Positions 17,496 to 38,131 of a DNA stretch of 64,000 bases are shown piece after piece. The stretch is from contig CAVRKE010000001.1 of the NCBI GenBank assembly GCA_963722305.1, positions 373,549-437,548 on the forward strand, in the 5' to 3' direction. The stretch's first letter is position 1. Every line of letters starts with the position of its first letter. The stretch comes from Candidatus Levyibacteriota bacterium (GTDB lineage Bacteria; Patescibacteriota; Microgenomatia; Levybacterales; UBA12049). The notes beneath the pieces are model-generated. The model worked only from the letters and a program-made list of their open reading frames with translations, searched no databases and had not been told where the DNA came from. A program made the translations under genes and the position numbers.

Positions 17496-18101
17496 TTAAG
17501 CAAGCCCTGATCTACCTTTATGGTGCAATCTTGAAAAAGTGCTGTTATCTGTCTCCCAATGGCCAAGTTGTAATCTTGTGTCAATCGATTTGGGTCTACT
17601 ATCAATCGAAATAGCTTCAGGAATACGGCTATCTCTATTAACCCTTCTTCCCAGCTTTTTCATTCTTTTCTTGCGTTTTACTGTTAGATATTGCCAGAGC
17701 TTAAATTGCTTGTTCTGTGGTTTGTAGATTGCCTGATAAATAGTTTCATGGACAATTGAAAGATCGGGATGATCTTTTGACAATCTTCCGGCAATTGTTT
17801 CAGGAGACCACTGTTTCTCTATTAGTTTCTTTTTAACATAAGAGTAGACCTCCGGTCCTTTCCAGGATGCTTGAGAGCGTTGAATAGCTGCTCTCTTATC
17901 AGCTTTTTGTTGTGCACGGCAGGGAATATATACGGCTGAAGTTTTCTCCAATCCCTTGGTATATGTTCTGTTTCTTTTGAGTTCACGAGACAGAGTGCCT
18001 TTGTTTCGTCCTAATTTATCTGCAATATCTCCCAGACTTAGTCCTGCATGCTTAAGCGCATAAAGCTCTTCCCGCTCTACAAGAGTTAAATGATTATACA
18101 T
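17496..18101 (-). mobile_element. IS30-family transposase, N-terminal 201 aa only (HTH and linker present, DDE catalytic domain missing)
   Basis: LTLVEREELYALKHAGLSLGDIADKLGRNKGTLSRELKRN (IS30 HTH), WSPETIAGRL, HETIYQAIY and GHWETD motifs. ORF ends 30 nt from the rpsF start, so the element is 3'-truncated. Confidence 0.7.
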
Positions 18102-19446: not shown

Positions 19447-19477
19447 AAGAGGATTATAGCAGAAGTGAATTTACAAT

Positions 19478-19966
19478 TTATTGCGGTAGCACTTGCCCGG
19501 GCGAAACGCAAACCCTTCTAACCGGCTGGTTGGCAATCAGTGGCCCAATAACCATGCATTTTTCGCCTACTTTACAGTCGCTGTCGGATTTACAACCGGT
19601 TGGCAAAGGCACACCGGTTGGCGCAGCCGTTTGTAGCATCACCGGAGGATTTTGGTACGAAGACAAAGTTTTTTGATACCACACGCCAAGATAAAAGGCG
19701 ATAATCGGAAATACAATAAACATACTTAGTGCCAAGGCCTTAGAAAAAGGTGTTACCGTAAATAAATATTTATGCACTGTCGAATTCTTGGCCACAACTA
19801 GATTATAGCAGAATTTTTCCTCTCCATTTATTGACATTTTTCTATGCCGCATATACCATATAAAAATGCTGAATTTCTTAACCCGCCAAACTCTCCGTAA
19901 AGTTCCGGAGCTGACAATTTTTTTCTGGATTATTAAACTCTTGTCCACTGCGCTTGGTGAATCCAC
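19478..19966 (-). CDS. hypothetical membrane-anchored protein with Cys-rich extracytoplasmic C-terminus
   Basis: TM segment LALSMFIVFPIIAFYLGVWY followed by GCKSDSDCKVGEKCMVIGPL...RVCVSPG. True start probably internal. Confidence 0.3.
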   Translation of the reverse strand: MDSPSAVDKSLIIQKKIVSSGTLRRVWRVKKFSIFIWYMRHRKMSINGEEKFCYNLVVAKNSTVHKYLFTVTPFSKALALSMFIVFPIIAFYLGVWYQKTLSSYQNPPVMLQTAAPTGVPLPTGCKSDSDCKVGEKCMVIGPLIANQPVRRVCVSPGQVLPQ

Positions 19967-20618
19967 TTCCGACTATCTGGTTTTTCACATTAATCCTTAT
20001 ATTGCAGTTGCCCTGGGCGCAATCGGACTGGTGATATCTCTCATCTTACAGCTTTTTGTCAAACGTTATGTCGCCTGGATTTATTGGTTGGCTGTCGTGA
20101 TGGTGGCGATTTTTGGCACCATGGCCGCCGATGTTTTGCATGTCGGCTTTGGCATCCCCTACATTATTTCAAGCATTTTCTTTGCTGTTTCTTTGGCAAT
20201 AATTTTTGCACTTTGGTACTTGGTGGAAAAAACTTTATCCATCCACAGTATTTTGACGCTTCGGCGTGAATTATTTTATTGGGCCACCGTGATGGCCACT
20301 TTTGCGCTTGGCACCGCACTTGGCGATTTAACCGCCGCCACTTTCGGCCTAGGATATTTGTTATCAGGAATTTTGTTCGCAGTGATATTTATTATCCCTG
20401 CATTAGGATTTAAATTTGCAAAGTGGAATGCAATTTTTTCCTTTTGGTTTGCTTATGTGATAACCCGGCCGTTTGGCGCGTCGTTTGCGGATTATTTTGG
20501 CAAGCCAATTTTGGGAGGAGTTGGATTTGGCGACGAAATCACTTCGGCAGTCTTAGCGGTATTAATTATAATTTTCGTAGTTTACCTCTCGCTCTCCCAC
20601 AAAGACACCAAACAATAG
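19866..20618 (+). CDS. hypothetical polytopic membrane protein
   Basis: 6-7 predicted TM helices; no catalytic motif recognised. Confidence 0.45.
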   Translation: MLNFLTRQTLRKVPELTIFFWIIKLLSTALGESTSDYLVFHINPYIAVALGAIGLVISLILQLFVKRYVAWIYWLAVVMVAIFGTMAADVLHVGFGIPYIISSIFFAVSLAIIFALWYLVEKTLSIHSILTLRRELFYWATVMATFALGTALGDLTAATFGLGYLLSGILFAVIFIIPALGFKFAKWNAIFSFWFAYVITRPFGASFADYFGKPILGGVGFGDEITSAVLAVLIIIFVVYLSLSHKDTKQ

Positions 20619-20659
20619 AAAATTTTAGCAGAATTACAAACCGTGGAGTTGATTTATCT

Positions 20660-21382
20660 TCACCTGCGCACCTGCCTGCGTCGTCTTACACTAGTAGTAT
20701 TATTTCTTTTATTAAAAACCGTTAACATATAGAATGACTTAAACATCGAGTCATAAAATCCTTCAAGATATTGACTGCTCATATAATTTGAGTAAAACAA
20801 TAAACCAATTAATAATAGTATTATTGGACCGTTAATCCTAAACAGGAAAATAAAGTACATAATTTTTTTAGCAAAACATAATTTAATTGAAATTAGTAGA
20901 AAAAAAGCGAGAAGTGCAAAAAACGTATTTGACCAAAAGGCAAATCGTGACGAAAAATGATTTACTTGAAAAGCAGCCTTTTCCCCGCGCAACCAATTAT
21001 CCATAAAATAAAATGTTGCAATTAATTTTTCTTCATCGTTTACGTTAGCACCGATATCCAGAGATTTCTTTACCTTTATAAATTTCTTTTCGTTTTCTTT
21101 TTTCTTTATAACATTACTCATTACGTTATAATTCCACATAAGGTATTTCCTTGCCAATTTTGTCATTCCTTGAAAAATAAAACCGGATGTAAGACCTAAA
21201 AATAAATACAAAAATATCAATACTAAAGAGTCTGGTTGTTTATTAAATGACAGTAACGATGAAACATCAAATATTTTGAAATAACTCATTAGAACAATGA
21301 ACAAACTACCGGGAATTACATTATAAAAAAACTCTACTATCGAAGCATCTGTGTTCATTAAAAAACTGCCTCTCGGCAGCAA
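20660..21382 (-). CDS. hypothetical membrane protein, very AT-rich (likely foreign origin); probable true start ATG at about 21358
   Basis: 240-aa ORF, GC about 28 percent, several TM helices. Confidence 0.4.
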   Translation of the reverse strand: MLPRGSFLMNTDASIVEFFYNVIPGSLFIVLMSYFKIFDVSSLLSFNKQPDSLVLIFLYLFLGLTSGFIFQGMTKLARKYLMWNYNVMSNVIKKKENEKKFIKVKKSLDIGANVNDEEKLIATFYFMDNWLRGEKAAFQVNHFSSRFAFWSNTFFALLAFFLLISIKLCFAKKIMYFIFLFRINGPIILLLIGLLFYSNYMSSQYLEGFYDSMFKSFYMLTVFNKRNNTTSVRRRRQVRR

Positions 21383-21390
21383 TTAGAATT

Positions 21391-21420
21391 TACTCCCCTT
21401 TCCGTACTTTTGCAAGTACC
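21391..21420 (+). repeat. island repeat copy a (ACTCCCCTTTCCGTACTTTTGCAAGTACCT)
   Basis: Member of an 8-copy ~30-nt family; between divergent gene starts. Confidence 0.7.
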
Positions 21421-21424
21421 TTAG

Positions 21425-21730
21425 TTGGTAAAGTATAATGAATATATGCACGCCTATTATATCTGGTATTTTTTAATCGGCGGATTCCTCGCAAATGGTA
21501 TGCCCCATTTTATTTGGGGACTATCAAATACTATTGCCCGTAGTCCCTTTGGCCAACATACAAAACCGAAAATTAACTTTTTGTGGGGACTGACAAATTT
21601 TATTGCAGCAACTTTACTATCTATTTGGCAAATCTATGCAAAAACATTTTCAGGTATTGCGCTGGTGTTTTTGCTGATAGGCTTTTGGCTAATGACTGCC
21701 TCGTTTGGTTTGGGAATTAAAAGATTTTAA
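21425..21730 (+). CDS. small hypothetical membrane protein; likely true start ATG at 21446 (leaderless; TATAAT ends 7 nt upstream)
   Basis: 3 TM helices; TTGCAA-N18-TATAAT promoter partly inside repeat a. Confidence 0.4.
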   Translation: MVKYNEYMHAYYIWYFLIGGFLANGMPHFIWGLSNTIARSPFGQHTKPKINFLWGLTNFIAATLLSIWQIYAKTFSGIALVFLLIGFWLMTASFGLGIKRF

Positions 21731-21750
21731 AGCAGTAGAAAACTATACTG

Positions 21751-21780
21751 CTCATCCCTTTCCGTACTTTGTCAAGGCTA
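21751..21780 (+). repeat. island repeat copy b (CTCATCCCTTTCCGTACTTTGTCAAGGCTA)
   Basis: Between convergent gene ends. Confidence 0.7.
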
Positions 21781-21783
21781 AAA

Positions 21784-22296
21784 TTATTTAGTGAAAATGG
21801 AGCCGAAGCGACCTTCGGAAATTAGTTTTATAACTTCTTCCCGAGCAAAAATCTTTCCGTTCATGCAGACATAAATTCCCGCTTTGAGCTCCTGCGATTT
21901 TGCTACTGCATAACCTAAGTTAAAACCGGCATCGGACGGTACAAAACCGGACAAAGGAATCATTGAGCCAACCAATATAATAACCTTGTCATTATTAGTA
22001 AGATTTTCTTTTAAGTATCTGGCTGTATCCGGCATTGTATATGTTCCATGTGTAACAATGATTCTTTTAGAGGAACTGTTATTAATGGCGTTGATAATTC
22101 TCTTTCTATCATCTTGTGTTATATCGCGGCTGTCTTTCATACAGATATCTGTAAACTCACACTCTTCATAAAGTTTTAAGAGCTTAACGTATTGAGGAAC
22201 CGTTGAATGATCATTCGGGACAACAGTATCTTTGTTGCCATCATAAACAGAATCGATAGTTCCACCGGTAATAATAACATGCAAAGCATCGGCCAT
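21784..22296 (-). CDS. L-asparaginase/glutaminase N-terminal-domain protein
   Basis: Asparaginase signature VIITGGTIDS near N-terminus; only ~170 aa, so one domain only. Confidence 0.55.
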   Translation of the reverse strand: MADALHVIITGGTIDSVYDGNKDTVVPNDHSTVPQYVKLLKLYEECEFTDICMKDSRDITQDDRKRIINAINNSSSKRIIVTHGTYTMPDTARYLKENLTNNDKVIILVGSMIPLSGFVPSDAGFNLGYAVAKSQELKAGIYVCMNGKIFAREEVIKLISEGRFGSIFTK

Positions 22297-22317
22297 AGAA
22301 TGATTATAGCAAAAATT

Positions 22318-22347
22318 TACTCCCCTTTCCGCCCGTTGTCAAGGCTG
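22318..22347 (+). repeat. island repeat copy c (TACTCCCCTTTCCGCCCGTTGTCAAGGCTG)
   Basis: Read on the minus strand it gives TTGACA-N17-TAAATT upstream of the asparaginase-like gene. Confidence 0.7.
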
Positions 22348-22351
22348 GTGG

Positions 22352-22600
22352 TTAATTATAAGCGCCCTGTCTATGCGTGATTTTATGAACTTCTATTCTG
22401 TCTGCTTTTTTATTTATTTCATAAATAATTCTGTACGGCCAGACACGGAGAGACCAAAAATCGGCCAGTTCTCCGCTAAGTTTTTTACCGGAATATGGAT
22501 TTTTGCCTAGAACTTCAAGCTTTTTGTAGATTTTTATTTGAGCGGCTTTGGGGAGACGGCTACATTGTTTTTGAGCATCTTCGGATAAGGCAATCTTCAT
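22352..22600 (-). CDS. type II toxin, RelE/ParE family
   Basis: 82-aa basic protein with RelE/YafQ-like C-terminus (RIEVHKITHRQGAY). Confidence 0.75.
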   Translation of the reverse strand: MKIALSEDAQKQCSRLPKAAQIKIYKKLEVLGKNPYSGKKLSGELADFWSLRVWPYRIIYEINKKADRIEVHKITHRQGAYN

Positions 22601-22612
22601 TTGGCAAAAAAA

Positions 22613-22875
22613 TTATCTTAAGTCTTTTAAATCAGACAAAAGCGCAAATTTTCCTGCTTTAATCTGCCTGCGACTTTTTTCAAGGTCTTTCTTAATATTT
22701 GGTATTGCCAAAACTTCTGCAGTTTCTTCTAAAGACTCGAGCTCTTCAAAGCTCAAAACCACAGCTTTTGGCTTGCCATTTACAGTAATTGTTGCTCTAT
22801 CCATATTCTTACTTATCTTATTAATAAGATTTGGAAGGATTGCTCTTGCGTCTGATATTGATATAAAATTACTCA
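22613..22875 (-). CDS. type II antitoxin, Phd/YefM family (probable start at 22876; tool ORF runs to 22933)
   Basis: ISISDARAILPNLINKI...ATITVNGKPKAVVLSFEELESLEET typical Phd/YefM. Promoter TTGACA-N17-TACATT with TGTACA repeats just upstream. Confidence 0.7.
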
Positions 22876-22911
22876 TGTAACTAATGTACACTAATATGTA
22901 CAATTTGTCAA

Positions 22912-22970
22912 CCTCCTTTTTGCCCTTTTGCAAGCCCCAAGGTCGCTACGTTCGGCCCGTTGTGAAATGC
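22912..22970 (+). repeat. island repeat copy d (1.5 copies: CCTCCTTTTTGCCCTTTTGCAAGCCCC ... GCCCGTTGTGAAATGC)
   Basis: Between divergent starts of the TA operon and the ICMT gene. Confidence 0.6.
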
Positions 22971-22986
22971 ATGTTATAATTTATAA

Positions 22987-23592
22987 ATGATAAATATTCC
23001 GGCATACCTTGTTGGAGGCTGTTGGATTATCTTTATAGCCTACTGGTTTATATCCGCAAGGTCAGTAAAACCAACTCAGCAAGTCCAATCAGGCTTATGG
23101 AAATTCAGAGGTATTGTTATTTTAGTTTTCGCCGTAATAATTACTCTCTACCGCCTTTTAGGTCTTAATGGCTGCAAAATTGATGCAAGCGGCTGCCATT
23201 ATTACTTACTGACATTGCCTAATAAAGAACCAATCGCTATTCAATATCTGGCAACTCTTCTTTCAATCATTGGACTTATTATTGCAGTAATCGCCAGAAG
23301 ACAACTGGCCGACAATTGGAGCGCCTCGGTAGAGCTAAAAAAAGGGCATGAGCTGATTACTACCGGCATCTACGGTTTAGTCAGACACCCAATTTACGCA
23401 GGGATGCTTTTGATGAGTTTAGGGGCTGCTACTTTTATAAATGCCGTTGTTTTTTGGGTAATTTTGATAGTTGTGGTTGTTCTTTTTGGCTACAGAGCCA
23501 AACAAGAAGAAGCCTTAATGACAAAAACTTTTCCCAAAGAATATCCGGAGTATAAGAAAAAAGTCAAAGCCCTCATTCCTTTTATTTTCTAG
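22987..23592 (+). CDS. isoprenylcysteine carboxyl methyltransferase (ICMT/PEMT) family membrane methyltransferase
   Basis: GIYGLVRHPIYAGMLLMSLG signature; TATAAT-N8-ATG upstream (leaderless-type). Confidence 0.7.
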   Translation: MINIPAYLVGGCWIIFIAYWFISARSVKPTQQVQSGLWKFRGIVILVFAVIITLYRLLGLNGCKIDASGCHYYLLTLPNKEPIAIQYLATLLSIIGLIIAVIARRQLADNWSASVELKKGHELITTGIYGLVRHPIYAGMLLMSLGAATFINAVVFWVILIVVVVLFGYRAKQEEALMTKTFPKEYPEYKKKVKALIPFIF

Positions 23593-23633
23593 CTCTCCTT
23601 TTACTAAGGTCGATGCAGATTTACTTTAGGATG

Positions 23634-24278
23634 TTAAGCAAATGAGCCGGTTTTTACTTTGCCGGCGCGTTCATACGAAGCAATGATTATGCCTTTAGGG
23701 GATACGCTTGATTCTTTCAGAGTGAATGCCGCCGGGATTGTCCCTTCGGCAAACAAACGCTTACCAGACCCCAGAGTTACGGGAAAAATTTTAAGCCATA
23801 ACTGATCAACGAGACCGTTTTTTAAAAGTGTTTGAATAAGATTTCCGCTTCCATGTACCTGCAAATCCGGCCCTTTACCTTTCTTTATTTTTTTAATTTG
23901 CCCCACGACATCTCTGTTAATGAGAACCGATTTCTCCCAATAGGGTTTGAAATTCCGGTGTGAAACTACATATTTTATGGCTTTATTAAAGGGTTTTCCC
24001 ACTTCATCGTTATGCTCGGGCCAGTAGGACGCAAAAATATCGTAAGTTTTTCTGCCAAGCAATAAATCGAAAGGTCTGCCCATTTGCTTAGCCATTACTT
24101 TACCTGAGAATTTGTCGAAATAAGGAAAGGTCCACCCGCCGTAGGAAAAACCTCCCGAAGTATCTTCTTTCGGACCACCGGGAGCCTGCATTATCCCGTC
24201 TAGCGAGATAAAAGTAAGCACGATTATTTTTCTCATAATTTGAACATTAAGCAGCTTTTTTGAGGTCTTCGATAACAA
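23634..24278 (-). CDS. dihydrofolate reductase-like protein (RibD C-terminal domain family); likely start at MRKIIVL
   Basis: IVLTFISLDGIMQAPGGP and GRKTYDIF motifs of COG0262-type reductases. Confidence 0.6.
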   Translation of the reverse strand: MLSKTSKKLLNVQIMRKIIVLTFISLDGIMQAPGGPKEDTSGGFSYGGWTFPYFDKFSGKVMAKQMGRPFDLLLGRKTYDIFASYWPEHNDEVGKPFNKAIKYVVSHRNFKPYWEKSVLINRDVVGQIKKIKKGKGPDLQVHGSGNLIQTLLKNGLVDQLWLKIFPVTLGSGKRLFAEGTIPAAFTLKESSVSPKGIIIASYERAGKVKTGSFA

Positions 24279-24699
24279 TTTTTTTCATCTTAAGCAGCGC
24301 TTCCATGGCCGGTTTTGAATTGACCAATTCCCCCACATTTTCCGGGACTATTTGCCATGACAAGCCAAATTTATCTTTTAGCCAACCACACTGCTCTGAT
24401 TCGGGAACCGCAGAAAGTTTTTCCCAATAATAATCTATCTCTTCCTGGTCTTTACATTTAACAACGAAAGAAATGGCTTCATTGAATTTAAAAAAAGGTC
24501 CGCCGTTTATGGCAGTAAATTCTTGACCGTCGAGCAAAAAATTGACAGTCATCACCGAGCCCACCGGAAGCTTTGACGGAGTTTCCATTTCGTAGTGAGT
24601 TTTGGAAAGTATTTTTGAGTTTTTAAAAACAGATACGTAAAACTCCGCCGCTTCTTCGGCATTTTTGTCAAACCATAAAAAGGGCGATATTTTTTGCAT
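24247..24699 (-). CDS. VOC/PhnB-like family protein
   Basis: 150 aa with PFLWFD...NGGP...WGLSWQI pattern of PhnB/3-demethylubiquinone methyltransferase-like VOC proteins; overlaps the DHFR-like gene by 32 nt. Confidence 0.5.
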   Translation of the reverse strand: MQKISPFLWFDKNAEEAAEFYVSVFKNSKILSKTHYEMETPSKLPVGSVMTVNFLLDGQEFTAINGGPFFKFNEAISFVVKCKDQEEIDYYWEKLSAVPESEQCGWLKDKFGLSWQIVPENVGELVNSKPAMEALLKMKKIVIEDLKKAA

Positions 24700-24782
24700 A
24701 CAAAGAACTTAACAAACAAACCGAATAAAATCTGTAAGTTATATTACATGCATTTTTTGCTAAATTACAGTAGAATGAAACT

Positions 24783-25223
24783 ATGAAGACAGCCACTAAA
24801 ACGGTCAAGGGATTTTCGGATGAGGAAAGAAAAGCAATGCAGGAACGGGCTAAAGAGCTGGCAGCCCAGGCGCGATCAAATAAGAATAAAGCTCAAGGGG
24901 AAAATGACGTTCTTCAAGCAATCACAAAAATGTCTGAGCCGGATCGCGGCCTTGCCAAACGGCTCCACGCTCTTATTAAAGAAAACGCGCCAGCCCTCTC
25001 GCCAAAAACTTGGTATGGGTTCCCCGCCTATGCAAAGGGTGACAAAGTCGTCTGCTTTTTCCAATATGCGGGAAAGTTTAAGACAAGGTACGCGACCTTG
25101 GGCTTTTCCGACGCGGCAAACTTAGATGAAGGCCAAATGTGGCCGGTTACTTTTGCCTTGACAAAACTGACTCCCACCGAAGAAGCAAAAATTATTGCGC
25201 TATTAAAAAAAGCAGTCAGCTAA
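24783..25223 (+). CDS. DUF1801 (YdhG-like) domain protein
   Basis: PKTWYGFPAYAKGDKVVCFFQYAGKFKTRYATLGF resembles the DUF1801 core. Confidence 0.4.
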   Translation: MKTATKTVKGFSDEERKAMQERAKELAAQARSNKNKAQGENDVLQAITKMSEPDRGLAKRLHALIKENAPALSPKTWYGFPAYAKGDKVVCFFQYAGKFKTRYATLGFSDAANLDEGQMWPVTFALTKLTPTEEAKIIALLKKAVS

Positions 25224-25238
25224 TAACTAATTTCAGAA

Positions 25239-25268
25239 CTCTCCTTCCTTTTGCCCGTTGTCAAATGG
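25239..25268 (+). repeat. island repeat copy e (CTCTCCTTCCTTTTGCCCGTTGTCAAATGG)
   Basis: Between convergent gene ends. Confidence 0.7.
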
Positions 25269-25272
25269 ATTA

Positions 25273-26121
25273 TTATCTGGCAACTATTAACGGTCGGGAT
25301 AAGCTATTTGCATGATCTTCAGCACTGTCATCGTTGTCCACTAAACCTATCCGACCATCATAATTATAAAAGACCATATGCTTCCCAAGGTAAACCCTTA
25401 ATTCCCATACATTTCCACCATCCACAGGTTGCGATAGTTCCTGTGATCCAACCATTAATAAATGGTTACCTCTATCTCCTGGCTTATCATCTAAAACCTC
25501 CGGATGCAATAAGTAATAATAAATTCCCTCTAAAACCGTAGCTCCACGCTCATCAGGCCGAAGGTATTTTCTTATCACAGGAATAGATTCAGCAAATTCC
25601 GTGTCATGAACATTGGTTCTGATAAACTCTACAATTTCCGGGCTTAGCTCATCATGGCCTAAATTTTTCGTATAGTTATCGTAGTCATCTATAATTATTT
25701 TTCTTAATTGGTCGCGGTTTCTGGTTTCTGCATAAATAGCGTATGGCAGATCCGGAGACGTAAATCGGTTGCCGGGCCAATCTGTAATCGGCTGACCGAC
25801 TAATGCCTGAGGAACACCAACTATTTCCAATAAACGCTGCCAGGAAATTCTTGGATCGATTAAGGTCGGAACGTCACCAAACTTATCTCGAAATTCGGGA
25901 AGCTTGGGTAAAAATCGCGGTAATGAATCTAGGTATGCTTGCGGGGATGGATATCCAAGTTCTTTGTCAAAACCAAACTCCAATAGCCTGTTTGCCTGCA
26001 CTGTCCATAAACTATCTAACCTGCTCCTTTCCGCCGATGCTGTGGTGACAAGAGCTCCAACTTCATCTCTTTTTGCCCCGATTGGAAAACCAGTTTTTCT
26101 GTGATTTTCGTTTACTGCCAT
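25273..26121 (-). CDS. hypothetical protein (higher GC); TATAAT 7 nt upstream of ATG
   Basis: 282-aa ORF without recognisable domain. Confidence 0.3.
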   Translation of the reverse strand: MAVNENHRKTGFPIGAKRDEVGALVTTASAERSRLDSLWTVQANRLLEFGFDKELGYPSPQAYLDSLPRFLPKLPEFRDKFGDVPTLIDPRISWQRLLEIVGVPQALVGQPITDWPGNRFTSPDLPYAIYAETRNRDQLRKIIIDDYDNYTKNLGHDELSPEIVEFIRTNVHDTEFAESIPVIRKYLRPDERGATVLEGIYYYLLHPEVLDDKPGDRGNHLLMVGSQELSQPVDGGNVWELRVYLGKHMVFYNYDGRIGLVDNDDSAEDHANSLSRPLIVAR

Positions 26122-26153
26122 AAGAGTAATTATAACACTACTATAAGATAAAA

Positions 26154-26186
26154 GCTACCCCTTTCCATCAGTTGTCAAAACTAAGG
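26154..26186 (+). repeat. island repeat copy f (GCTACCCCTTTCCATCAGTTGTCAAAACTAAGG)
   Basis: Between tandem minus-strand genes. Confidence 0.7.
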
Positions 26187-26191
26187 AGTTG

Positions 26192-26641
26192 TTACTGAAG
26201 TTGGCCTAAATCGGCGAGGATTTGGGTAAAGTGCGTCAACGGATTAACGCTTTTGTATTCTTTGACTATTTCGCCTTCCGGATTAATTAAATACGAATTT
26301 CTTTGCGTTCCCGTAAATTCTCTGCCCATAAATTTCTTCGTTCCCCATGCCCCGTAACTTTCGATAATTTTATGATCCGAATCCGAAAGTAAAATAAAAT
26401 TGAGTTTATATTTGTCGGCAAATTTTTTATGTGATACAACGCTGTCCTTGGAAATTCCGACTACTGTTACTCCCCTTTTTGTAAATTCGCTAAGACCGTC
26501 GCGGAAATTACACGCTTCTTTGGTGCAACCGGGGGTATCATCTTTTGGATAAAAATAAATAAGCAACCACTTTCCTTTGTACTCTAACAACTTGTGAAAT
26601 TCCCCGTTTTGGTCAGGTAAACTAAAATCTTTTGCTTTCAC
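26192..26641 (-). CDS. bcp: thiol peroxidase Bcp (peroxiredoxin Q family)
   Basis: FYPKDDTPGCTKEACNFRD peroxiredoxin active-site motif. Confidence 0.85.
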   Translation of the reverse strand: MKAKDFSLPDQNGEFHKLLEYKGKWLLIYFYPKDDTPGCTKEACNFRDGLSEFTKRGVTVVGISKDSVVSHKKFADKYKLNFILLSDSDHKIIESYGAWGTKKFMGREFTGTQRNSYLINPEGEIVKEYKSVNPLTHFTQILADLGQLQ

Positions 26642-26677
26642 GCGCGAAGCACATCCTCTTCTTTTTCACGCTTATTG

Positions 26678-26695
26678 TCTGTAAGCTTGCTTACA
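26678..26695. promoter_or_regulatory. perfect 8-2-8 palindrome CTGTAAGC-TT-GCTTACAG in the bcp/qor divergent intergenic region (candidate operator)
   Basis: Read directly; nested in outer CTTATT...AATAAG inverted repeat. Confidence 0.45.
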
Positions 26696-26733
26696 GCTGT
26701 TTGTTGTAATAAGCGCTAAAATGATATCAGTAA

Positions 26734-27669
26734 ATGAAGGCAGCACAGGTTAAAAACTATGGCGGCAATGACGCTATAGAAGTGGTGGACGCTAGCGCGC
26801 TTACCCCACAAAAGGGGCAGGTTTTGGTTGAAGTGTATGCCGCGAGTTTAAACCGGATTGATTCTTTTTTTCTGGCCGGCGGATTACAAGCGTGGCTTAA
26901 AATTGAACTGCCCCAAACTTTAGGCGGAGATTTTGCCGGGGTCATAACCGAAATAGGAGAAGGAGTAACCGATTTTAAAGTCGGTGACGAAGTTTACGGG
27001 AATGCCGGAGTATACAGGGGCGGGTCGGGTTCGCTGGCAAACTTTGTAGTATCCAACGTTGATAATACCGCTCTTAAACCTAAATCCCTTGATTTTAGTC
27101 AGTCGGCCGCACTTCCCTTAGCCGGAGCCAGTGCCCTACAGGGAATTGAAGAAGAATTAAAACTCCAAAAAGGACAAAAAGTGCTAATTCAAGGAGGAGC
27201 AGGTGGAATCGGAGCTTTTGCAATTCAGATTGCCAAAACGCTCGGAGTGTATGTGGCAACCACAGTCGGAAGCGATGATGTTGAGTTTGCCAAAAGTCTT
27301 GGCGCCGATGAAGTGATTGACTACAAAACACAAGACGCATCACAAATTTTAAAAGATTACGACGCAGTTTTTAATACGGCTAATCCGCAAGAAGCAGGTA
27401 AATTGTTTGCAATCCTGAAAAAAGGCGGCAAATTTGTTTCGATGACCGGCCAACCGGACTTAGAGCTTGCCAAGAAATATGCAGTAACCGCTGTTGGTCA
27501 GGCAACCAAAACAAGTTCCGAACAATTAAAAAGAATTGCCGAGCTTGTTGACAACAAAAAACTAAAAGTATACGTCGAAAAGACTTTCCCGTTTGCCCAA
27601 ACCAAAGAAGCATTTGCCTATTTCGAAACCCAACACCCCAGAGGAAAAGTAGTTGTGAATGTAAAGTAG
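26734..27669 (+). CDS. NADPH:quinone oxidoreductase (zinc-type alcohol dehydrogenase/MDR superfamily)
   Basis: MDR fold with cofactor-binding GGAGGIGAFAIQIAK. Confidence 0.8.
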   Translation: MKAAQVKNYGGNDAIEVVDASALTPQKGQVLVEVYAASLNRIDSFFLAGGLQAWLKIELPQTLGGDFAGVITEIGEGVTDFKVGDEVYGNAGVYRGGSGSLANFVVSNVDNTALKPKSLDFSQSAALPLAGASALQGIEEELKLQKGQKVLIQGGAGGIGAFAIQIAKTLGVYVATTVGSDDVEFAKSLGADEVIDYKTQDASQILKDYDAVFNTANPQEAGKLFAILKKGGKFVSMTGQPDLELAKKYAVTAVGQATKTSSEQLKRIAELVDNKKLKVYVEKTFPFAQTKEAFAYFETQHPRGKVVVNVK

Positions 27670-27684
27670 AATCAAGAATTTTTT

Positions 27685-27714
27685 TCTCCCCTTTTCGTCC
27701 GTTTGCAAGTACCT
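27685..27714 (+). repeat. island repeat copy g (TTCTCCCCTTTTCGTCCGTTTGCAAGTACC)
   Basis: Between convergent gene ends; followed by GTCCG...CGGAC stem. Confidence 0.7.
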
Positions 27715-27771
27715 CGCTGACGCTTCGGACCGTTATTAAATCAAAAAACTTTGGGATTTATAATTAATGAT

Positions 27772-28411
27772 TTAAGCAAGTTTGTCTAGAAATTGTCGGA
27801 GCTGGCCGGTTCTATCCAGAAGGATTTTGTTGCCGTCGGTTAAAACCTTTTTTGTTCCTTCATCGGCCGGAATTTTTATCCAATCCGCAGTTGTAAAATT
27901 GTATTCGATCTCAAAACCGTTCTTGTAAAAGACCCTTTTTGTTTTAAGCAGTCCCCAATGTTCGTCCATTATTTTTTCGGCGTACCCGAATTTTCCTATC
28001 CATGAATCATCTTTTAGATATAAGTCCGGTTTTTGGGTAATGATTACTAAATCAACGTCCGAAGTTTCCTTAAAGGAATTTCTGGCATACGAGCCTACCA
28101 AAAACACCCCAATAATATCCTCCTGGAAAATTGCCCAATCAACAAGTTTTTTTAAAAATGCCTCAATGTCTTCCACTAAATTGATTATAGCATTCCCCTT
28201 CTTATCCGTTACTGCAAGTCCTGAATGAAGTGAAGGATCAAATTTATTTTTTGGGAAGATCAATTATTTTGGCCGGGCCTTTGACCGGCCCACGTCTTCT
28301 TGAGGGATGAAATTCATGAGGGTCCCGATGCGCATCTATATTGATAATGTGACCGTCTTTATTAACCAACCTAAGCTTTGGTTCCCCACCTTCTTCACCA
28401 TTGTTTATCAT
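27772..28411 (-). CDS. nucleotidyltransferase-domain protein (Pol-beta superfamily). The main ORF 27772..28263 is preceded by a 55-codon N-terminal extension in another frame at an A6 run
   Basis: NTase motif GVFLVGSYARNSFKETSDVDLVII. Removing one A from the A6 run at minus-strand 28247-28252 fuses the extension (MINNGEEGGE...) in frame. Confidence 0.5.
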
Positions 28412-28490
28412 ATTTACTAGTATAGCACTACCGTTATTTTCTCAGCTAAAATTCAACCCCACACGTTACTATTAGTGCTATAATTTTGCC

Positions 28491-29801
28491 ATGCAGTTTA
28501 AATTGGCTAAACCCACAAATTTCCCTAAATTACCTAAATTCCCTCATTTGCCCCATTTGCCCCGCTTGAAACAGGAGTCGGTTGGAAAAATAGCCGCTTT
28601 TCTGGCTAAACATAAAGTGGCGCTGACAATCCTAATTTCGTTTATTCTCTTTGTCACGGTAGCAATGTGGTACCGGGGATACCTCCTTTCCAAAATGAAG
28701 CAAACTTTAGGAAGTTCCAGTGATGAAATATTTTATTCCACCAAGTCTGAAAATCTGGGCCCGACTATTAGCCTTCCTACACCTTCCGACAATAACACCA
28801 TTCTTCCGAATAATTCCGCTTCTTATGAAAATACAATACCAACACCTTTCCCCACACTTGCGCCTCTGCCGGCAATTACTCCGATACCGGTTTCCACAAC
28901 AACTACAAACACCAGCACTTCTTCTACCAGTAACAGCTCGGGCAACCCCAACTGTACGACCGGTTCGGGTACGCCCAATTCCTGGTATTCCGATGTTTAC
29001 CCCAATCCTTCAGCCGCATCAACCAATACCGGCTCCATCACCATGTATGTTTACATCCGCGACTGCAACGAAAATACTGCATCGGTTTCCGACAACTTGA
29101 ACATTTCCTTAAGTTCGGGCGATTCGAATACGCAAATTAACGGCAATAGTCTTCCTGCTACTGTGACTACACAAAACGGAGTCGCCAGTTTTACCGTTGC
29201 CTCGCAGGTTAGCGGCACAGTTACTTTGGTTGTGCAAGATACTACCAGTAACTTTACTGTAACTAACGTTAACAATAATAATCCGAGCATTACGTTTAAT
29301 AGTAGCGGCAGCTCTTCAGGGAATGCCCATTGCGCAACTGCCAACGGCGTACCGAATTTCTGGTATTCTGAGGTTTCTCCAAACTCCCCTATTTCCGCCG
29401 CTACCGGCTCTACCGTAACGCTGACGGTTAACATCCAAGACTGCGGCAAAAACAATGTCTCCTCCGACAACCTAACACTTACTCAAACTTCCAGCGATTC
29501 CAGCTTAACCGTGAACGGCTCTTCCGCGCCGGTGAGCGTTCAAGCGCAAAATGGCGTTGCCACTTTTAATCTAGTTTCGCAAAACGCCGGCACAGATACG
29601 TTCACGATACAAGACACTACCAGTAACTTTGCGGTAACCGATTCCAACAACAATTCTCCGAGCATCGTTTTTAGCGGCTCTTCAACCACTACCACACCAA
29701 CTCCGACACCAACCGTGACAACGGCTCCAACGCCAAGCGTAACAGATACTCCAACTCCCACGCCAACACCATCCACTACTCCCACAACAACTGGTCCATA
29801 A
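28491..29801 (+). CDS. cell-surface protein with N-terminal TM anchor, two ~115-aa Ig-like tandem repeats and a Thr/Pro-rich tail
   Basis: Internal repeats (NCTTGSGTPNSWYSDVYPN...QDTTSNFTVTN / HCATANGVPNFWYSEVSPN...QDTTSNFAVTD); C-terminal TPTPTPT. Confidence 0.5.
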   Translation: MQFKLAKPTNFPKLPKFPHLPHLPRLKQESVGKIAAFLAKHKVALTILISFILFVTVAMWYRGYLLSKMKQTLGSSSDEIFYSTKSENLGPTISLPTPSDNNTILPNNSASYENTIPTPFPTLAPLPAITPIPVSTTTTNTSTSSTSNSSGNPNCTTGSGTPNSWYSDVYPNPSAASTNTGSITMYVYIRDCNENTASVSDNLNISLSSGDSNTQINGNSLPATVTTQNGVASFTVASQVSGTVTLVVQDTTSNFTVTNVNNNNPSITFNSSGSSSGNAHCATANGVPNFWYSEVSPNSPISAATGSTVTLTVNIQDCGKNNVSSDNLTLTQTSSDSSLTVNGSSAPVSVQAQNGVATFNLVSQNAGTDTFTIQDTTSNFAVTDSNNNSPSIVFSGSSTTTTPTPTPTVTTAPTPSVTDTPTPTPTPSTTPTTTGP

Positions 29802-29808
29802 CCGTAGG

Positions 29809-29840
29809 CATCCCATCCCCTTTTCGCCTGTTGCCAAATA
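29809..29840 (+). repeat. island repeat copy h (CATCCCATCCCCTTTTCGCCTGTTGCCAAATA)
   Basis: Last copy, downstream of the surface-protein gene. Confidence 0.65.
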
Positions 29841-29920
29841 TGAAAAAGTACTCAGCATTCTCTAAGAAATAACCTTTATGCTAAATTTATGATTACAAAG
29901 GAGGTGAATTTAGAATAACA

Positions 29921-30502
29921 ATGAAGAAGCAAAAAATTGCGCTTTCTCTGGTAATACTAACAGTTTTAACCACCACACTATTGGTTGTTCCGTCTGCTTT
30001 TGCCCAAAGCACAACGGCAAATAATAAACCAAATTTTTTCCAAGGGTTAATTCAGTTTATCGAGCAGAAATTTGGGCTTAATAAGGACCAAGTTACGTCA
30101 GCGGTCAATCAATATAAAAACCAAGTGAAAGCGACCATTACACCACGTCCGACACTAACGCCGGAGCAAATCCAGGCACAGGAAAAAGCCGGGCTGGATA
30201 AACTTGTCACTGCCGGGAAAATAACCAGTGCTCAGGAAACATTAATCTTAAATGAGCTTTCGGCTTTGAACAGTCAATATCCCTTAACCGGATTGACGGG
30301 AACTCAAAGGAGAACTCAAATGCAGGCAATGCAAGCTGCGCTTAAAGCGTGGGCTACCAGCAACAACATTAATCTTGCCTACATACCGATGTTTGGAGGA
30401 ATGGGTGGACCAGGTGGGCCAAGAGGAAAAATGGGTGGAAGAGGCGGTTTCCGTGGACCATGGGGAGCAAAACCAACTATTACACCAACGCCAACTCAAT
30501 AA
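29921..30502 (+). CDS. hypothetical secreted protein with Gly-rich C-terminus
   Basis: Signal peptide MKKQKIALSLVILTVLTTTLLVVPSAFA; C-terminal GGMGGPGGPRGKMGGRGGFRG. Confidence 0.4.
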   Translation: MKKQKIALSLVILTVLTTTLLVVPSAFAQSTTANNKPNFFQGLIQFIEQKFGLNKDQVTSAVNQYKNQVKATITPRPTLTPEQIQAQEKAGLDKLVTAGKITSAQETLILNELSALNSQYPLTGLTGTQRRTQMQAMQAALKAWATSNNINLAYIPMFGGMGGPGGPRGKMGGRGGFRGPWGAKPTITPTPTQ

Positions 30503-30515
30503 ATCTTTTCCGTCT

Positions 30516-30564
30516 AAAAACAAACGCTTTACTTATAAACAGAAGGCGTTTGTTTTGTTTTTCA
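30516..30564 (+). terminator. rho-independent terminator (AACAAACGC / GCGTTTGTT stem, then a T-run)
   Basis: 9-bp perfect stem with 18-nt loop followed by TTGTTTTTC. Confidence 0.5.
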
Positions 30565-30632
30565 ATACCGGTAATTTACATTACAGTTTTCTTCTATAAA
30601 AAGGATTATTCTTCTAAAAGAAAGGGGAAATT

Positions 30633-31037
30633 ATGCCAAATAGAGTTGTGCATTTTGAAATTGAGGCCAAAGATATGGACAGAGCCAAAAAATTTTACGG
30701 CGAGGCTTTTGGTTGGGAAATGGATAAAATGGGAGACGAATACGGCGGTTATCTTGTGATAAAAACCGGGGAAAATACCGGCAAAATGGAAGATATGGGA
30801 ATCAACGGCGGAATTTATAAAAGTATGAAGGACGATAAGGAAATTAATGCCTACCGCTGCGTTATCGGGGTTGAAGACGCTGAAAAAGCTGCAGAAGCCG
30901 TAACAAAAGCCGGTGGGAAAGTTTTAAGTAAGCCAAGCGATATTCCCAATGTGGGACTGTTTGTTAGTTGCAAAGACACTGAAGGAAATAATTTTACCAT
31001 GCTCCAACCTTCTCCAAATATGACACCGCAGAAATAA
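30633..31037 (+). CDS. VOC family protein (glyoxalase/bleomycin-resistance fold)
   Basis: HFEIEAKDMDRAKKFYGEAFGW N-terminal glyoxalase motif. Confidence 0.7.
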   Translation: MPNRVVHFEIEAKDMDRAKKFYGEAFGWEMDKMGDEYGGYLVIKTGENTGKMEDMGINGGIYKSMKDDKEINAYRCVIGVEDAEKAAEAVTKAGGKVLSKPSDIPNVGLFVSCKDTEGNNFTMLQPSPNMTPQK

Positions 31038-31047
31038 TAAATTTAAC

Positions 31048-31488
31048 TTACTGTCCGGGGTTAATGCGCAGAGTTTGGGCGCTGACTGAACCGTTTGAGG
31101 AAGTTTGTCCGGTGATGGTGACGTTTTGACCGTTTTGCAGATTACTTTGACTGGCGGTACTAAGTTGTGAATACTGAGTTGAAGATGAAAGGTTGACTGC
31201 TCTGGTTGAACCGTCGGGAAGTTTAAGTGTTACCTGGTTGCCGGAAATACCGGTGATTGTCCCATTAAGCACTCCCCTCCTCATCTGCATTCCGTTAAAA
31301 CCGATGTTTGGTCCAAAACCAAAATTTTGTGGTCTGACTCCATATTGGAAATTCATCATTGGTCTTCCATAATAAAATCCCCTTGCCAAACGGGCTCTCT
31401 GAAAAGCCATTCCTACGCCGAAAGCGATAAATCCGACGATAACGACAAGGATTAAGGCAATACCGATTATTTTAGATTCATTCTTCAC
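31048..31488 (-). CDS. hypothetical membrane-anchored protein
   Basis: N-terminal TM helix, Gly/Asn/Gln-rich remainder. Confidence 0.35.
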   Translation of the reverse strand: MKNESKIIGIALILVVIVGFIAFGVGMAFQRARLARGFYYGRPMMNFQYGVRPQNFGFGPNIGFNGMQMRRGVLNGTITGISGNQVTLKLPDGSTRAVNLSSSTQYSQLSTASQSNLQNGQNVTITGQTSSNGSVSAQTLRINPGQ

Positions 31489-31571
31489 GGGGGCAGTATA
31501 ACACTATTTTCTGAGAAAAGGCTGAATAAAGTAAGCTTTCAACCCAATCCTGTCAAGTAGCTAGTAGACTG

Positions 31572-31600
31572 TTGACACAGGACCAAGAACAGCCTATAAT
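31572..31600 (+). promoter_or_regulatory. perfect consensus sigma70 promoter TTGACA-N17-TATAAT
   Basis: TTGACA 31572-31577, TATAAT 31595-31600; 146 nt upstream of the 31747 ORF. Confidence 0.5.
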
Positions 31601-31746
31601 TGGGCCGCCAAATGCGAGAAGCTAGCCGGAGAAAGACAACTTCCCTAACAATTGACACCTTCAAACAAGGAAATGCCACCCTATTTTTTACTTTTCTCAA
31701 AAGATTATTAAGAGATATTAATTTATTTTATCTAAGCTAAGCTATT

Positions 31747-33201
31747 ATGAATGAACTACCAAGAAGTCCATATGCAAATGCTGCCCAAAGACCACTTGAA
31801 TATTTTTTGCCAACGGCTGGATTCGTAGATAGAGATCTTGAATACGTTCGGCGACTAGTAGATTATCGAGAAGGGATTCATCGAAACAGACGAATTTTAA
31901 GGGACAGAAGGCTGTGTCGAGCGATTGTCGATAGCGCAGTTGCTGCTGTCACAATGATAGATGAAACTAGACCCGCAGGCGAAAAAGGCTATACGGTTCA
32001 GGCGATGAAAGTCCGTGACATTTATGAAGGCTTGCAAAGGTTGGGTACTGCTCAGGCACAATTGGCAGTGCTTGAAGGAGCATTAAACGATGCTAATCCT
32101 CTGATAAAAGCTGATGTTATCCGCCGTTTCATAAGAAGCTCTAATAAAATTAGTGCCGATGGAAAACTGGAAAAACAATATCCTTATATTTATCCGGTGG
32201 TATTCGATAAATTACTTGAACCAACAGGTAATTCTACCATCGACGACGAACAAAAAAAACTGGCCTTAAAGATTATTGTCGAAAATCCGACAGCGGGTTA
32301 CGATAAGGCAGGACGGGTTTTTGAAAGCATTAACCGTTTATTCATTTATGTCATCGAAGACGACCTCCCCGAAGAAAAAAGAATGGAGTATGTTTATGCT
32401 GCCGCAAATTTGCATCAACGGGCAGTTTCGGGCCAACAGAGGTCAGAACGTTTCCCCATAGGAATAGCTGAACCGGTTAGAGATCGACTAAGCGGCATCT
32501 TACAAAGTGAGCTTGAAAAGGCATTGGAACGATTTAGACCTTCAACTAAAAGCGAGATGGAAGCCTTATTAAGAAAAATTGCCCGTAAAAATCTGAATCT
32601 CTTAAACGCAAGGGAAACGTCTGCCGCAAAAGATCGTGTGCAGTTTGACATGCAAAAAGAGATTAAAAAACTTGAAAATAATATGAGTCTACCTGAAGAG
32701 ATGGATGCCAAAAATCAGGTGGATGCGCTTAAACATCTCTACGCTGGCGGGGACGTGCCTTTTGAAATTAATGATTTGATTCAGGAATACGAAGATTTAC
32801 TGGCCATAGTCGGATTTAGAGCCAATTCTCTTATTAATATTCTAATCACGGAGGATGAAGCGGAAGAAAAAGCCCGAAGAGAGGCCGAAAGAATCCAAAA
32901 AGAAGCAGCTGCGCAGAAAGCCAAGAGTGAAGCTGAGGAACAAGCCAAACAAACTAAGATTAGACAAGAAGCAGCCAGAGCGCAAATGCTCGCAAGAATT
33001 AAAACTCAAGTTCCTCCTGAAGTTTTTGGACTTTTGGACGGAACGGCAGAAATTAAACTCAAAACAACAACTGTAAGTAATCCAGGAACTAAACCTGCGA
33101 AACCCACAGCCTCTAATAAGAGGGTCGTAGATAATAGCCCGGAAGCCAGAGAACAAAGGCTTAGAGAGCTGGCTCACCGCATGGAAACAGAAACTACTTA
33201 G
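31747..33201 (+). CDS. hypothetical 484-aa soluble protein with charged coiled-coil C-terminus (ORFan)
   Basis: No TM or known motifs; Lys/Glu/Ala-rich C-terminal repeats; higher GC. Confidence 0.4.
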   Translation: MNELPRSPYANAAQRPLEYFLPTAGFVDRDLEYVRRLVDYREGIHRNRRILRDRRLCRAIVDSAVAAVTMIDETRPAGEKGYTVQAMKVRDIYEGLQRLGTAQAQLAVLEGALNDANPLIKADVIRRFIRSSNKISADGKLEKQYPYIYPVVFDKLLEPTGNSTIDDEQKKLALKIIVENPTAGYDKAGRVFESINRLFIYVIEDDLPEEKRMEYVYAAANLHQRAVSGQQRSERFPIGIAEPVRDRLSGILQSELEKALERFRPSTKSEMEALLRKIARKNLNLLNARETSAAKDRVQFDMQKEIKKLENNMSLPEEMDAKNQVDALKHLYAGGDVPFEINDLIQEYEDLLAIVGFRANSLINILITEDEAEEKARREAERIQKEAAAQKAKSEAEEQAKQTKIRQEAARAQMLARIKTQVPPEVFGLLDGTAEIKLKTTTVSNPGTKPAKPTASNKRVVDNSPEAREQRLRELAHRMETETT

Positions 33202-33264
33202 AAGTACTAATAACAGATGAAAAATAGCGAAAACTGCTGCCTTGCGCTATAATACGCTTCAACT

Positions 33265-36733: not shown

Positions 36734-36734
36734 C

Positions 36735-38120: not shown

Positions 38121-38131
38121 ATTTTTATTTC

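Follow-up and report, generated by a model that had tools for sequence, protein, structure and literature searches.

A polar repeat at the gene junctions of the variable ychF-QRPTase locus in a Microgenomates-group bacterium: a probable portable promoter and a possible recombination site

Bacteria of the candidate phyla radiation (CPR), the Patescibacteria, have tiny genomes with few recognised mobile elements, and the turnover of their accessory genes is poorly understood. A stretch of 64,000 nucleotides (nt) from a Candidatus Levyibacteriota genome (contig CAVRKE010000001.1, 608 kb), called the window hereafter, contains a variable region of small accessory genes between ychF and the gene of a nicotinate/quinolinate phosphoribosyltransferase (QRPTase), and the central 8.4 kb of this region is taken up by a family of repeats of about 30 nt, all of which point the same way whatever the direction of the genes beside them. 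What is such a repeat, and why does it keep a single orientation? The answer tentatively preferred here, with a confidence somewhat short of even, is that it is the polar junction element of a shufflable accessory array and also serves as a portable promoter, within a Microgenomates clade and at the ychF-QRPTase locus.

The repeat-bearing part of the window extends from 21385 to 29841. A preliminary description of this DNA had listed eight co-oriented copies on the + strand and no full copy in the other ~55 kb, and both statements held when the window was scanned on both strands. A position weight matrix made from those eight copies scored them at 25.7-41.8 bits, all on the + strand (starts at 21387, 21747, 22314, 22905, 25236, 26150, 27680 and 29809), while the top scores in the rest of the window were merely 19.8 (+) and 19.2 (-). 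With a covariance model (sequence-only, filters off) the eight copies had E values of 2e-8 to 7e-4, and a ninth copy (i), which has a 2-nt insertion within the box, was found at 28186-28210 with E = 0.03; the remaining matches in the whole window had E >= 0.05 and lay within coding sequence. Furthermore, with a model trained on 19 copies from other genomes and none from the window (R2), E was <= 0.0044 for six of those in the window and 0.03 for copy i, while copies b and f were matched weakly (E = 0.17 and 0.38), every one on the + strand and inside 21386-29841. Because this model, made from the relatives' copies only, recovers those of the window, the family is no self-training artefact. In addition, two decayed remnants were spotted by eye, so that the family in the window comprises eight copies, the ninth indel variant and two remnants, all on the + strand. 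The family consensus is ACTCCCCTTTTCGCCCGTTGTCAAG, with a mean column identity of 69% and a conserved length of ~30-45 nt, and the conserved core consists of a TTG-N-CAA box and a 17-nt pyrimidine/purine tract. The region and the copies are as follows.

19447-33264, no strand: variable accessory region between ychF (18379-19446, - strand) and the QRPTase gene (33265-34338, + strand).
21385-21418, + strand: copy a; on the minus strand it reads TTGCAA-17-TAAATT, then a hairpin and T-run, then the ATG of a membrane-protein gene of 29.7% guanine + cytosine (GC).
21747-21779, + strand: copy b, between the stop codon of the three-transmembrane (3-TM) protein gene (+) and that of the asparaginase-domain gene (-); no -10 hexamer at 16-18 nt.
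22312-22345, + strand: copy c, the best consensus match; TTGACA-17-TAAATT, upstream of the asparaginase-domain gene.
22905-22968, + strand: copy d, of the long form, with the Phd/RelE operon (-) on one side and ICMT (+) on the other; its parts are a TTGTCAA box (22905-22911), the core and box TTTTGCAAG (22910-22934), a linker that is conserved and, at 22957-22968, a second box CCCGTTGTGAAA.
23593-23617, + strand: decayed remnant CTCTCCTTTTAC..., directly past the ICMT stop codon; seen by eye, under the model threshold.
25238-25266, + strand: copy e, 15 nt past the stop codon of the DUF1801 gene (+) and before that of a 282-amino-acid (aa) orphan gene (-); no -10 hexamer.
26149-26181, + strand: copy f, upstream of the 282-aa orphan gene (-), which has its own TGtTATAAT, and directly after the Bcp stop codon.
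26651-26684, + strand: decayed copy upstream, that is 5', of Bcp (-).
27678-27740, + strand: copy g, a long form past the Qor stop codon (+) and before that of the nucleotidyltransferase gene (-); core and box (27685-27709), linker TACCTCGCTGACGCTTCGGA and a degenerate second box.
28186-28219, + strand: copy i, with the 2-nt box insertion, upstream of the nucleotidyltransferase gene (-), which uses TGcTATAAT-7-GTG.
29814-29841, + strand: copy h, past the stop codon of the gene for the Ig-repeat surface protein (+) and ahead of the conserved leader that belongs to a 193-aa gene (+).

The "1.5 copies" first reported at 22912 resolve into the parts given for copy d. The island genes named at that time (a 3-TM protein, an asparaginase domain, a toxin-antitoxin pair, ICMT, DHFR-like, VOC and DUF1801 proteins, Bcp, Qor, a nucleotidyltransferase and an Ig-repeat protein) agree with Pfam, and the GC content of the membrane-protein gene at 20660-21382, put at 28%, is 29.7% when measured, the other island genes having 34-47%.

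The same locus was fetched from relatives with YchF and QRPTase as anchors, which gave seven non-redundant related contigs. The identity is 81% for YchF in L025/L110 and L111, 78% for QRPTase in L105, ~72% in L106-108, L112 and L114, 67% in L109, and 66% for YchF in L027. The ychF-QRPTase stretch has a different set and order of small accessory genes in every related genome, and the repeat family was found in all related loci save the more distant L028. Model R1 gave 30 matches at E < 0.1 in 305 kb of related and outgroup loci, all inside the variable region and in the same chromosomal orientation as in the window, and none in the flanking purine, ribosomal and cell-wall genes of the relatives or in the outgroup loci. 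When each genome is counted once, there are 33 non-redundant copies (E < 0.1) in eight genomes, all between ychF and QRPTase, with none inverted and none in ~115 kb of flanking core DNA of these genomes. The confinement and common orientation first noticed in the window, and the suspected variability of the locus, are therefore found across the relatives as well. Moreover, a strict motif scan of one representative genome for each of 185,579 species (596 Gb, the source species not included) gave 11 isolated matches in unrelated phyla, which is about the number expected by chance, so that the family is specific to this clade; 12 single matches in viral contigs are likewise compatible with chance.

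What does the element do where it stands? Read on the ychF strand, its consensus is CTTGACA-ACGGGCGAAAAGGGGAG-TAAATT, that is, a -35 box, a conserved purine-rich spacer of 17 nt and a -10 hexamer. The TTGNNN box is present in 24 of the 27 strongest copies, and its variants TTGACA, TTGCAA, TTGGCA and TTGATA track the usual conservation pattern of -35 boxes; TAnnnT occurs at 16-18 nt in 14 of the same 27, against ~2 expected by chance. In six copies of the relatives (L110-1810, L110-6898 and L105-1691, both before Bcp, L106-5876, L109-3319 and L109-6911, each named by contig and position) the -10 hexamer is 6-10 nt from the ATG or GTG, and in L106-7556 and L112-1523 the element is followed by a short leader with GGAGG, a Shine-Dalgarno sequence. 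Leaderless mRNAs seem to be the norm here, since in at least 20 window genes, ychF among them, (TGn)TATAAT stands 5-8 nt before the start codon (for example at 19447-19462, 22297-22311, 22972-22986 and 28476-28490); a minority of window genes have GGAGG or AAAGGGGA Shine-Dalgarno leaders. Furthermore, copy a and L105-1165 have in common the box, the spacer, the -10 hexamer and a leader with hairpin and T-run that ends at the ATG, and the downstream proteins are unrelated. Because the same element and leader precede non-homologous genes, the element can be regarded as a portable promoter. Taken together, the box, spacer and -10 geometry, the leaderless spacing and the portability make it probable, as far as sequence can tell, that the minus-strand reading of the element is a sigma-70 promoter, and this half of the interpretation is well supported. 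The portable-promoter role suggested in the preliminary description would thus appear sound, and the 17-nt spacing which it gave for copies a, c and d stands for a and c; in copy d it is absent from the full copy and belongs to the box of the upstream half-copy instead (TTGACA-17-TACATT).

Several details of the promoter-like copies deserve a place here. The palindromic TTGCAA of copy a is also the -35 box of the 3-TM gene on the + strand, whose TATAAT follows after an 18-nt spacer, and a 16-nt palindrome, GTACTTTTGCAAGTAC, overlaps the -35 box in copy a and in L105-1165. The leader with hairpin and T-run (CTGCCgagaGGCAGTTTTTT-A-ATG) lies at 21361-21384 (-) in the window and at 1120-1160 in L105, between the -10 hexamer and the ATG of two unrelated genes, and it could be a 5' stabiliser or an attenuator. 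Four copies are long forms (d and g of the window, L105-1165 and L105-1691), in which a conserved linker (TACCTCGCTGAC.C.TCGG.CC; window 27710-27729 and 22935-22956, L105 1190-1215 and 1716-1745) is followed by a second TTG-CAA box; the linker with its second box, or the 16-nt palindrome, may be an operator or a fused double site. At the positions orthologous to the decayed copy upstream of Bcp, L110 (6898) and L105 (1691) carry good copies, which would form the leaderless Bcp promoter there. Two other readings of the conserved part were rejected. A Shine-Dalgarno reading of GGAAAGGGGAG has the wrong spacing to start codons in nearly all copies, and the boxes of sigma-54, extracytoplasmic-function and SigB-type promoters, going by their generally known consensus sequences, do not fit.

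Is the element then a promoter and nothing else? On such an account a strong leftward sigma-70 promoter would have been reused before accessory genes without any role in recombination; its co-orientation would reflect selection for replication-co-directional transcription together with local duplication, and those copies that lie behind + genes would be explained as antisense promoters, as distal promoters of minus-strand genes farther to the left or as decaying relics. This is a possibility, though a lesser one. The promoter geometry and the leaderless spacing speak for it, as do the 22 of 33 copies that lie upstream of minus-strand gene starts, and the minus strand is G-rich, holds most of the window genes and is presumably the leading strand. 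In addition, some of the behind-gene copies in relatives retain a -10 hexamer (TAAGTT in L110-6076, TAAATT in L105-4535), copy h is missing or decayed at the orthologous junctions in L106 and L110, and the reuse of promoters is documented (PMC3488235).

Against a promoter alone stand the copies behind genes. Eleven of the 33 lie 0-20 nt past the stop codon of an opposite-strand gene (b, e, g and h of the window, L110-6070, L110-2090, L105-2838, L105-4528, L112-1119, L114-254 and L114-1994), where the firing direction would be antisense into the preceding gene. Copies b, e, g and h have no -10 hexamer at any allowed spacing, yet their core match is as good as any (26-32 bits), and the full sigma-70 geometry of box, 17 +/- 1 spacer, -10 hexamer and placement is absent from copies b, d, e, f, g and h. 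Such behind-gene copies recur at orthologous spots with different right-hand neighbours, namely behind DUF1801 (copy e in the window, 2838 in L105), the Ig-repeat gene (window and L114) and the acyltransferase gene (L110 and L105). Moreover, most minus-strand island genes in the window are served by leaderless TGnTATAAT promoters of their own, which stand between repeat and start codon and by which copies c, d, f and i are bypassed; the asparaginase-domain gene beside copy c, for instance, has TGcTATAAT-6-ATG at 22303-22311. Not one of the 33 copies is inverted so as to stand ahead of, and drive, a + strand gene, although the + strand holds about half of the island's genes, and the conservation of the spacer is left unexplained. 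Because one third of the copies are behind opposite-strand genes, b, e, g and h have no -10 hexamer, other copies are bypassed and none is inverted, a plain promoter is probably not enough.

A further point against it comes from the more distant relative L027 (contig Ga0209515_10000246, 600-7100, + strand of the locus), where an array of ~7 kb beside ychF has the same architecture with a different repeat. Nine co-oriented copies of an unrelated repeat of ~30 nt, (A/G)TTCTAACTTCCTCCAYYCCTCGGAGCT (consensus RTTCTAACTTCCTCCAYYCCTCGGAGCT), are spaced by 374-1235 bp, one copy for each small gene (NUDIX, GntR-like, RibD_C, methyltransferase, cupredoxin), and all nine are on one strand even beside reverse-oriented genes. 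No conserved hairpin and no promoter geometry was found in these nine repeats. The same locus also has one copy of the window type directly upstream of ychF. Since two unrelated repeats have the same layout at the same locus, the architecture rather than the particular promoter is likely to be the selected feature. L028 carries three copies of yet another repeat, of ~50 nt (AAAAATCCCCAGGTGCCAAACTAGTCCACCCC...), upstream of ychF (178-215, 3586-3638 and 4584-4636).

If the architecture is what matters, do the modules between the repeats move? An all-vs-all comparison of the island open reading frames (ORFs) gave at least 12 families that occur in 2-6 genomes, and their order varies but their strand never does. 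On the minus strand these are Bcp, CDF, DUF3467, a small membrane protein and DUF5666, and on the plus strand the Ig-repeat protein, the acyltransferase, DUF167, DUF1801, the 193-aa protein, DUF347 and a ~500-aa protein. Bcp, for example, adjoins QRPTase in L110, precedes the Ig-repeat gene in the window and L112 and precedes DUF1801 in L105; DUF167 adjoins ychF in L110 and QRPTase in L106 and L114; and CDF is relocated to QRPTase in L112. A change of order without a change of strand is what one would expect if modules were excised and re-inserted between sites in direct repeat. Furthermore, copy a is a mosaic, its left half being that of c (18 of 18) and its right half resembling g (15 of 20), while copy b has the centre of a and the right end of c, and a and b have the 15-nt core CCCTTTCCGTACTTT in common. 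Judged from these sequences, a and b resemble the pair of hybrids that would result if the 360-bp 3-TM module had been inserted into a c-like copy.

The polarity, the copies behind opposite-strand genes, the shuffling without inversion and the mosaic copies make a recombination or boundary role of the repeats plausible. In the combined explanation, which is placed above the promoter alone, the core on the ychF strand would serve as -35 box and spacer and, wherever a TAAATT-type -10 hexamer is next to it, as promoter of the following and often leaderless minus-strand gene. At the same time recombination between these direct repeats would insert, delete and re-order modules at the copies; they are read in this way because one co-oriented copy is present at nearly every module boundary whatever the gene direction. 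Recombination between direct repeats would move modules without inverting any. The agent might be a site-specific recombinase encoded elsewhere, or short-homology or RecA recombination after DNA uptake.

A number of observations weigh against the recombination half. No tyrosine or serine recombinase was found by Pfam among the scanned ORFs of the window, as the preliminary description had also stated, nor any integrase or recombinase in the gene tables of the related loci examined, and an IS30 fragment is the one transposase present. Neither an excised circle nor a clean pair of occupied and empty sites was seen. The gene order is identical in same-species contigs from different samples (L106/107/108 and L110/111), so module turnover is slow. 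The repeats fill most intergenic gaps, so that a coincidence of breakpoints with repeats is unavoidable. Some moved modules have no copy (CDF in L112), the junction between the Ig-repeat and 193-aa genes has copy h in the window and none in L106, and a second variable spot (35.5-39.3 kb) has no repeats. Finally, neighbouring copies are no more alike than distant ones, and copies which are ~55-75% identical over ~30 nt are a poor RecA substrate.

A more far-reaching version, which must be called doubtful, is that the locus is a cassette system of the Microgenomates at a fixed ychF hotspot, in which modules of one gene each would be captured, lost and shuffled at polar sites that are short, unstructured and specific to the lineage, through a non-integron recombinase or through uptake and short homology. 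In the window lineage the site would have merged with a promoter, so that a captured minus-strand gene arrives expressed, and the L027 repeat would be a second version of such a site.

Another explanation, which is improbable, is serial integration at one att site that overlaps a promoter beside ychF. Small integrative elements or trans-mobilised, cargo-only satellites would have duplicated att each time, leaving tandem modules split by co-oriented att copies like the islands of tycheposon or IMEX type. The polarity, the single repeat for each module, the ychF-adjacent position and the lineage-specific repeat sequence would all be explained in this way, the window-type copy of L027 directly upstream of ychF would fit, and so would copies a and b with their common core as hybrid insertion products. 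Against this, no integrase, tRNA or dif-like site was found, the modules are single genes of 0.36-2.3 kb, and the common modules are about as diverged as core genes (Bcp 78%, YchF 81%), which suggests that the modules are old residents which have been reshuffled and not repeated fresh integrations.

Rather less probable still is a polar insulator, terminator or roadblock, in which a DNA-binding protein, or a C-rich RNA acting as a Rho entry site, would halt transcription at module boundaries in an island that is tightly packed and has genes running both ways. Copies do lie within 0-20 nt of + gene stop codons, RNA from the + strand would be rich in C and poor in G, there are a few intrinsic terminators, and the L027 repeat likewise comes after stop codons. 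The element has no hairpin, however, and a Rho effect would be one-sided, since minus-strand transcripts carry the purine-rich strand; the restriction to the island and the shuffled order are not explained either.

A true integron array without an integrase, that is, a cluster of attC sites lacking an integron-integrase (CALIN), with unusually short attC sites, is very improbable and already largely refuted. The sites are co-oriented and there is one for each small accessory gene (9 of 9 in the window, 33 of 33 across the genomes), the cargo is cassette-like (toxin-antitoxin pair, VOC, RibD_C, nucleotidyltransferase, Bcp), and CALINs with no integrase nearby are common (PMC4889954). In the same survey, made with IntegronFinder, integrons were missing from very small genomes (PMC4889954), and the present host has a CPR genome of roughly the 0.6-Mb class, in which they were not found. 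Single-stranded folds of 80-96 nt around the nine copies have no attC-like hairpin in common, most Z-scores being within +/-1, and RYYYAAC...GTTRRRY pairs 40-150 nt apart number 0 in 21301-29900 on both strands, against 1.2 expected in shuffled sequences, in line with the lack of canonical attC cores noted at first inspection. No IntI was found among the scanned ORFs of the window or in the gene tables of the related loci, the conserved part is an asymmetric sequence of 25-30 nt, and the genes are on both strands with their own promoters. The least probable of all is a selfish or genome-wide small repeat (a repetitive extragenic palindrome or REPIN, one of the miniature inverted-repeat transposable elements or a DNA-uptake sequence), for, although the element is short and intergenic, has a palindromic box (TTGCAA/TTGTCAA) and, as copy h, is there in one genome and missing in another at a junction that is conserved in other respects, it has no terminal inverted repeats, target duplications or hairpin, keeps one orientation, is absent from 55 kb of the same genome and ~60 kb of relatives' core DNA, and gives only chance matches in the 185,579-species and viral scans.

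The flanks of the variable region are core genes, with HisRS, a release factor, MurB, HtrA, S6/SSB/S18 and YchF on the left and QRPTase, AIR-synthase-related and purine genes, a split transketolase, CysRS and RecR on the right. The nearest named homologues of the QRPTase are from Gottesman-, Levy- and Roizmanbacteria, so the host belongs to the Microgenomates group of the Patescibacteria. The IS30 transposase is truncated and lies at 17496-18101 (-), between rpsF and ychF, on the far side of ychF from the island. It has an HTH_38 domain, matches positions 2-140 of 267 of NCBIfam transpos_IS30, stops just past the first catalytic Asp, is followed by a 277-nt non-coding stretch and is missing in the relatives. 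At 35519-39316 the second presence/absence spot holds three genes (404, 461 and 394 aa) between the AIR-synthase-like and HAD genes; they are missing in L110, where instead a PLD-like gene separates QRPTase from the AIR-synthase-like gene. The window also encodes, at 55618-56370 (-), a PD-(D/E)XK nuclease-family protein with a sub-threshold Cas4 match (35 bits, cut-off 65) and no CRISPR context in the window.

As regards the cargo, the RibD_C (DHFR-like) protein at 23634-24236 (-) has 70-78% identity to proteins of Methanosarcina, Methanolobus, Parcubacteria, Moraniibacteria and Chloroflexota-type metagenome-assembled genomes, and the copy in the related L027 is only 61% identical, that is, more distant than the homologues from archaea and other phyla. 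The gene appears, on these similarities, to be widely transferred cargo, across domains too. Its homologues did not lead to an integrase-bearing array; the close ones are in unrelated taxa, and the one large context, L115 (GCA_034680565.1, JAXOUH010005121.1, 7400-18400), has no repeats at the junctions of its ~18 small accessory genes, which are co-directional with gaps of 10-20 nt. These include DUF1801 (twice), NUDIX (twice), RibD_C, glyoxalase, EamA and CYTH, so that the cargo is similar and the organisation different.

What the locus offers is a conserved hotspot on the chromosome at which genes of unrelated kinds (detoxification, stress, surface) are exchanged, with a polar promoter-bearing repeat at nearly every junction. 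If the repeats are recombination points, it would be an integron-like gene-capture device with a different type of site and a different enzyme, and in addition a ready-made promoter for the engineering of these uncultured organisms. If they are promoters only, it would still be a clean natural case of promoter propagation, with a strict strand rule that is unexplained.

How, then, does the array compare with known systems? No relevant literature was found on integrons, cassette arrays, promoters or such repeats in CPR bacteria, and an Rfam scan of 19000-34000 gave no match. Polar oligomers of the KOPS or Chi kind were rejected, since outside the island short C-rich words show no more than a mild skew, as the strand bias of genes predicts. 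An origin of the repeat from a tRNA or rRNA fragment was rejected as well, there being no resemblance and no tRNA, and so were repetitive extragenic palindromes and miniature inverted-repeat elements, which would call for a hairpin, terminal inverted repeats, target duplications or dispersal, none of which was seen in the DNA scanned. A tRNA-targeting integrative island does not apply, because the window has no tRNA or tmRNA gene and no integrase. Tycheposon-type tandem islands and the minimal mobile elements of Neisseria occupy a fixed hotspot between conserved genes, and their cargo differs by strain. The present locus is like them in its fixed hotspot, its strain-variable cargo and its co-oriented short repeats between modules, and unlike them in that it has no tRNA-derived att and no integrase, its modules are single genes and its repeat is a promoter. 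The pdif sites are 28-bp dyads, with 11-bp inverted arms for XerC and XerD around a 6-bp spacer, in alternating orientation. The pdif modules of Acinetobacter plasmids resemble the island in that small accessory-gene modules are bounded by short repeats like recombination sites; membership of this class, which the preliminary description had considered alongside integrons, fails because the consensus has no Xer-type dyad and its orientation never alternates.

The putative mobile promoters of Matus-Garcia et al. (2012) form families of 50-100 nt with >= 80% identity upstream of non-homologous genes (PMC3488235). The element shares with them a conserved promoter, in some cases with a 5' leader, that is reused before non-homologous genes within and between related genomes. 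It differs in that its copies, at ~30-45 nt and 69% mean column identity, fall below that operational definition, and in that they keep to one orientation and one island with one third of them behind genes; no polarity and no polar clustered arrays are described in that study (PMC3488235). Integron arrays and CALINs have a similar layout. As in these, the sites are polar and co-oriented, one for each small module, the accessory cargo is unrelated and includes a toxin-antitoxin pair, the order is shuffled between relatives while the orientation is kept, and the junction sites look chimeric. Membership is rejected, as there is no hairpin, no R''/R' core and no IntI, and the sites here are asymmetric, ~30 nt long and promoter-bearing, among genes on both strands with promoters of their own. 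In its logic the array resembles an integron cassette array, with polar sites and one site for each module, yet it is no integron.

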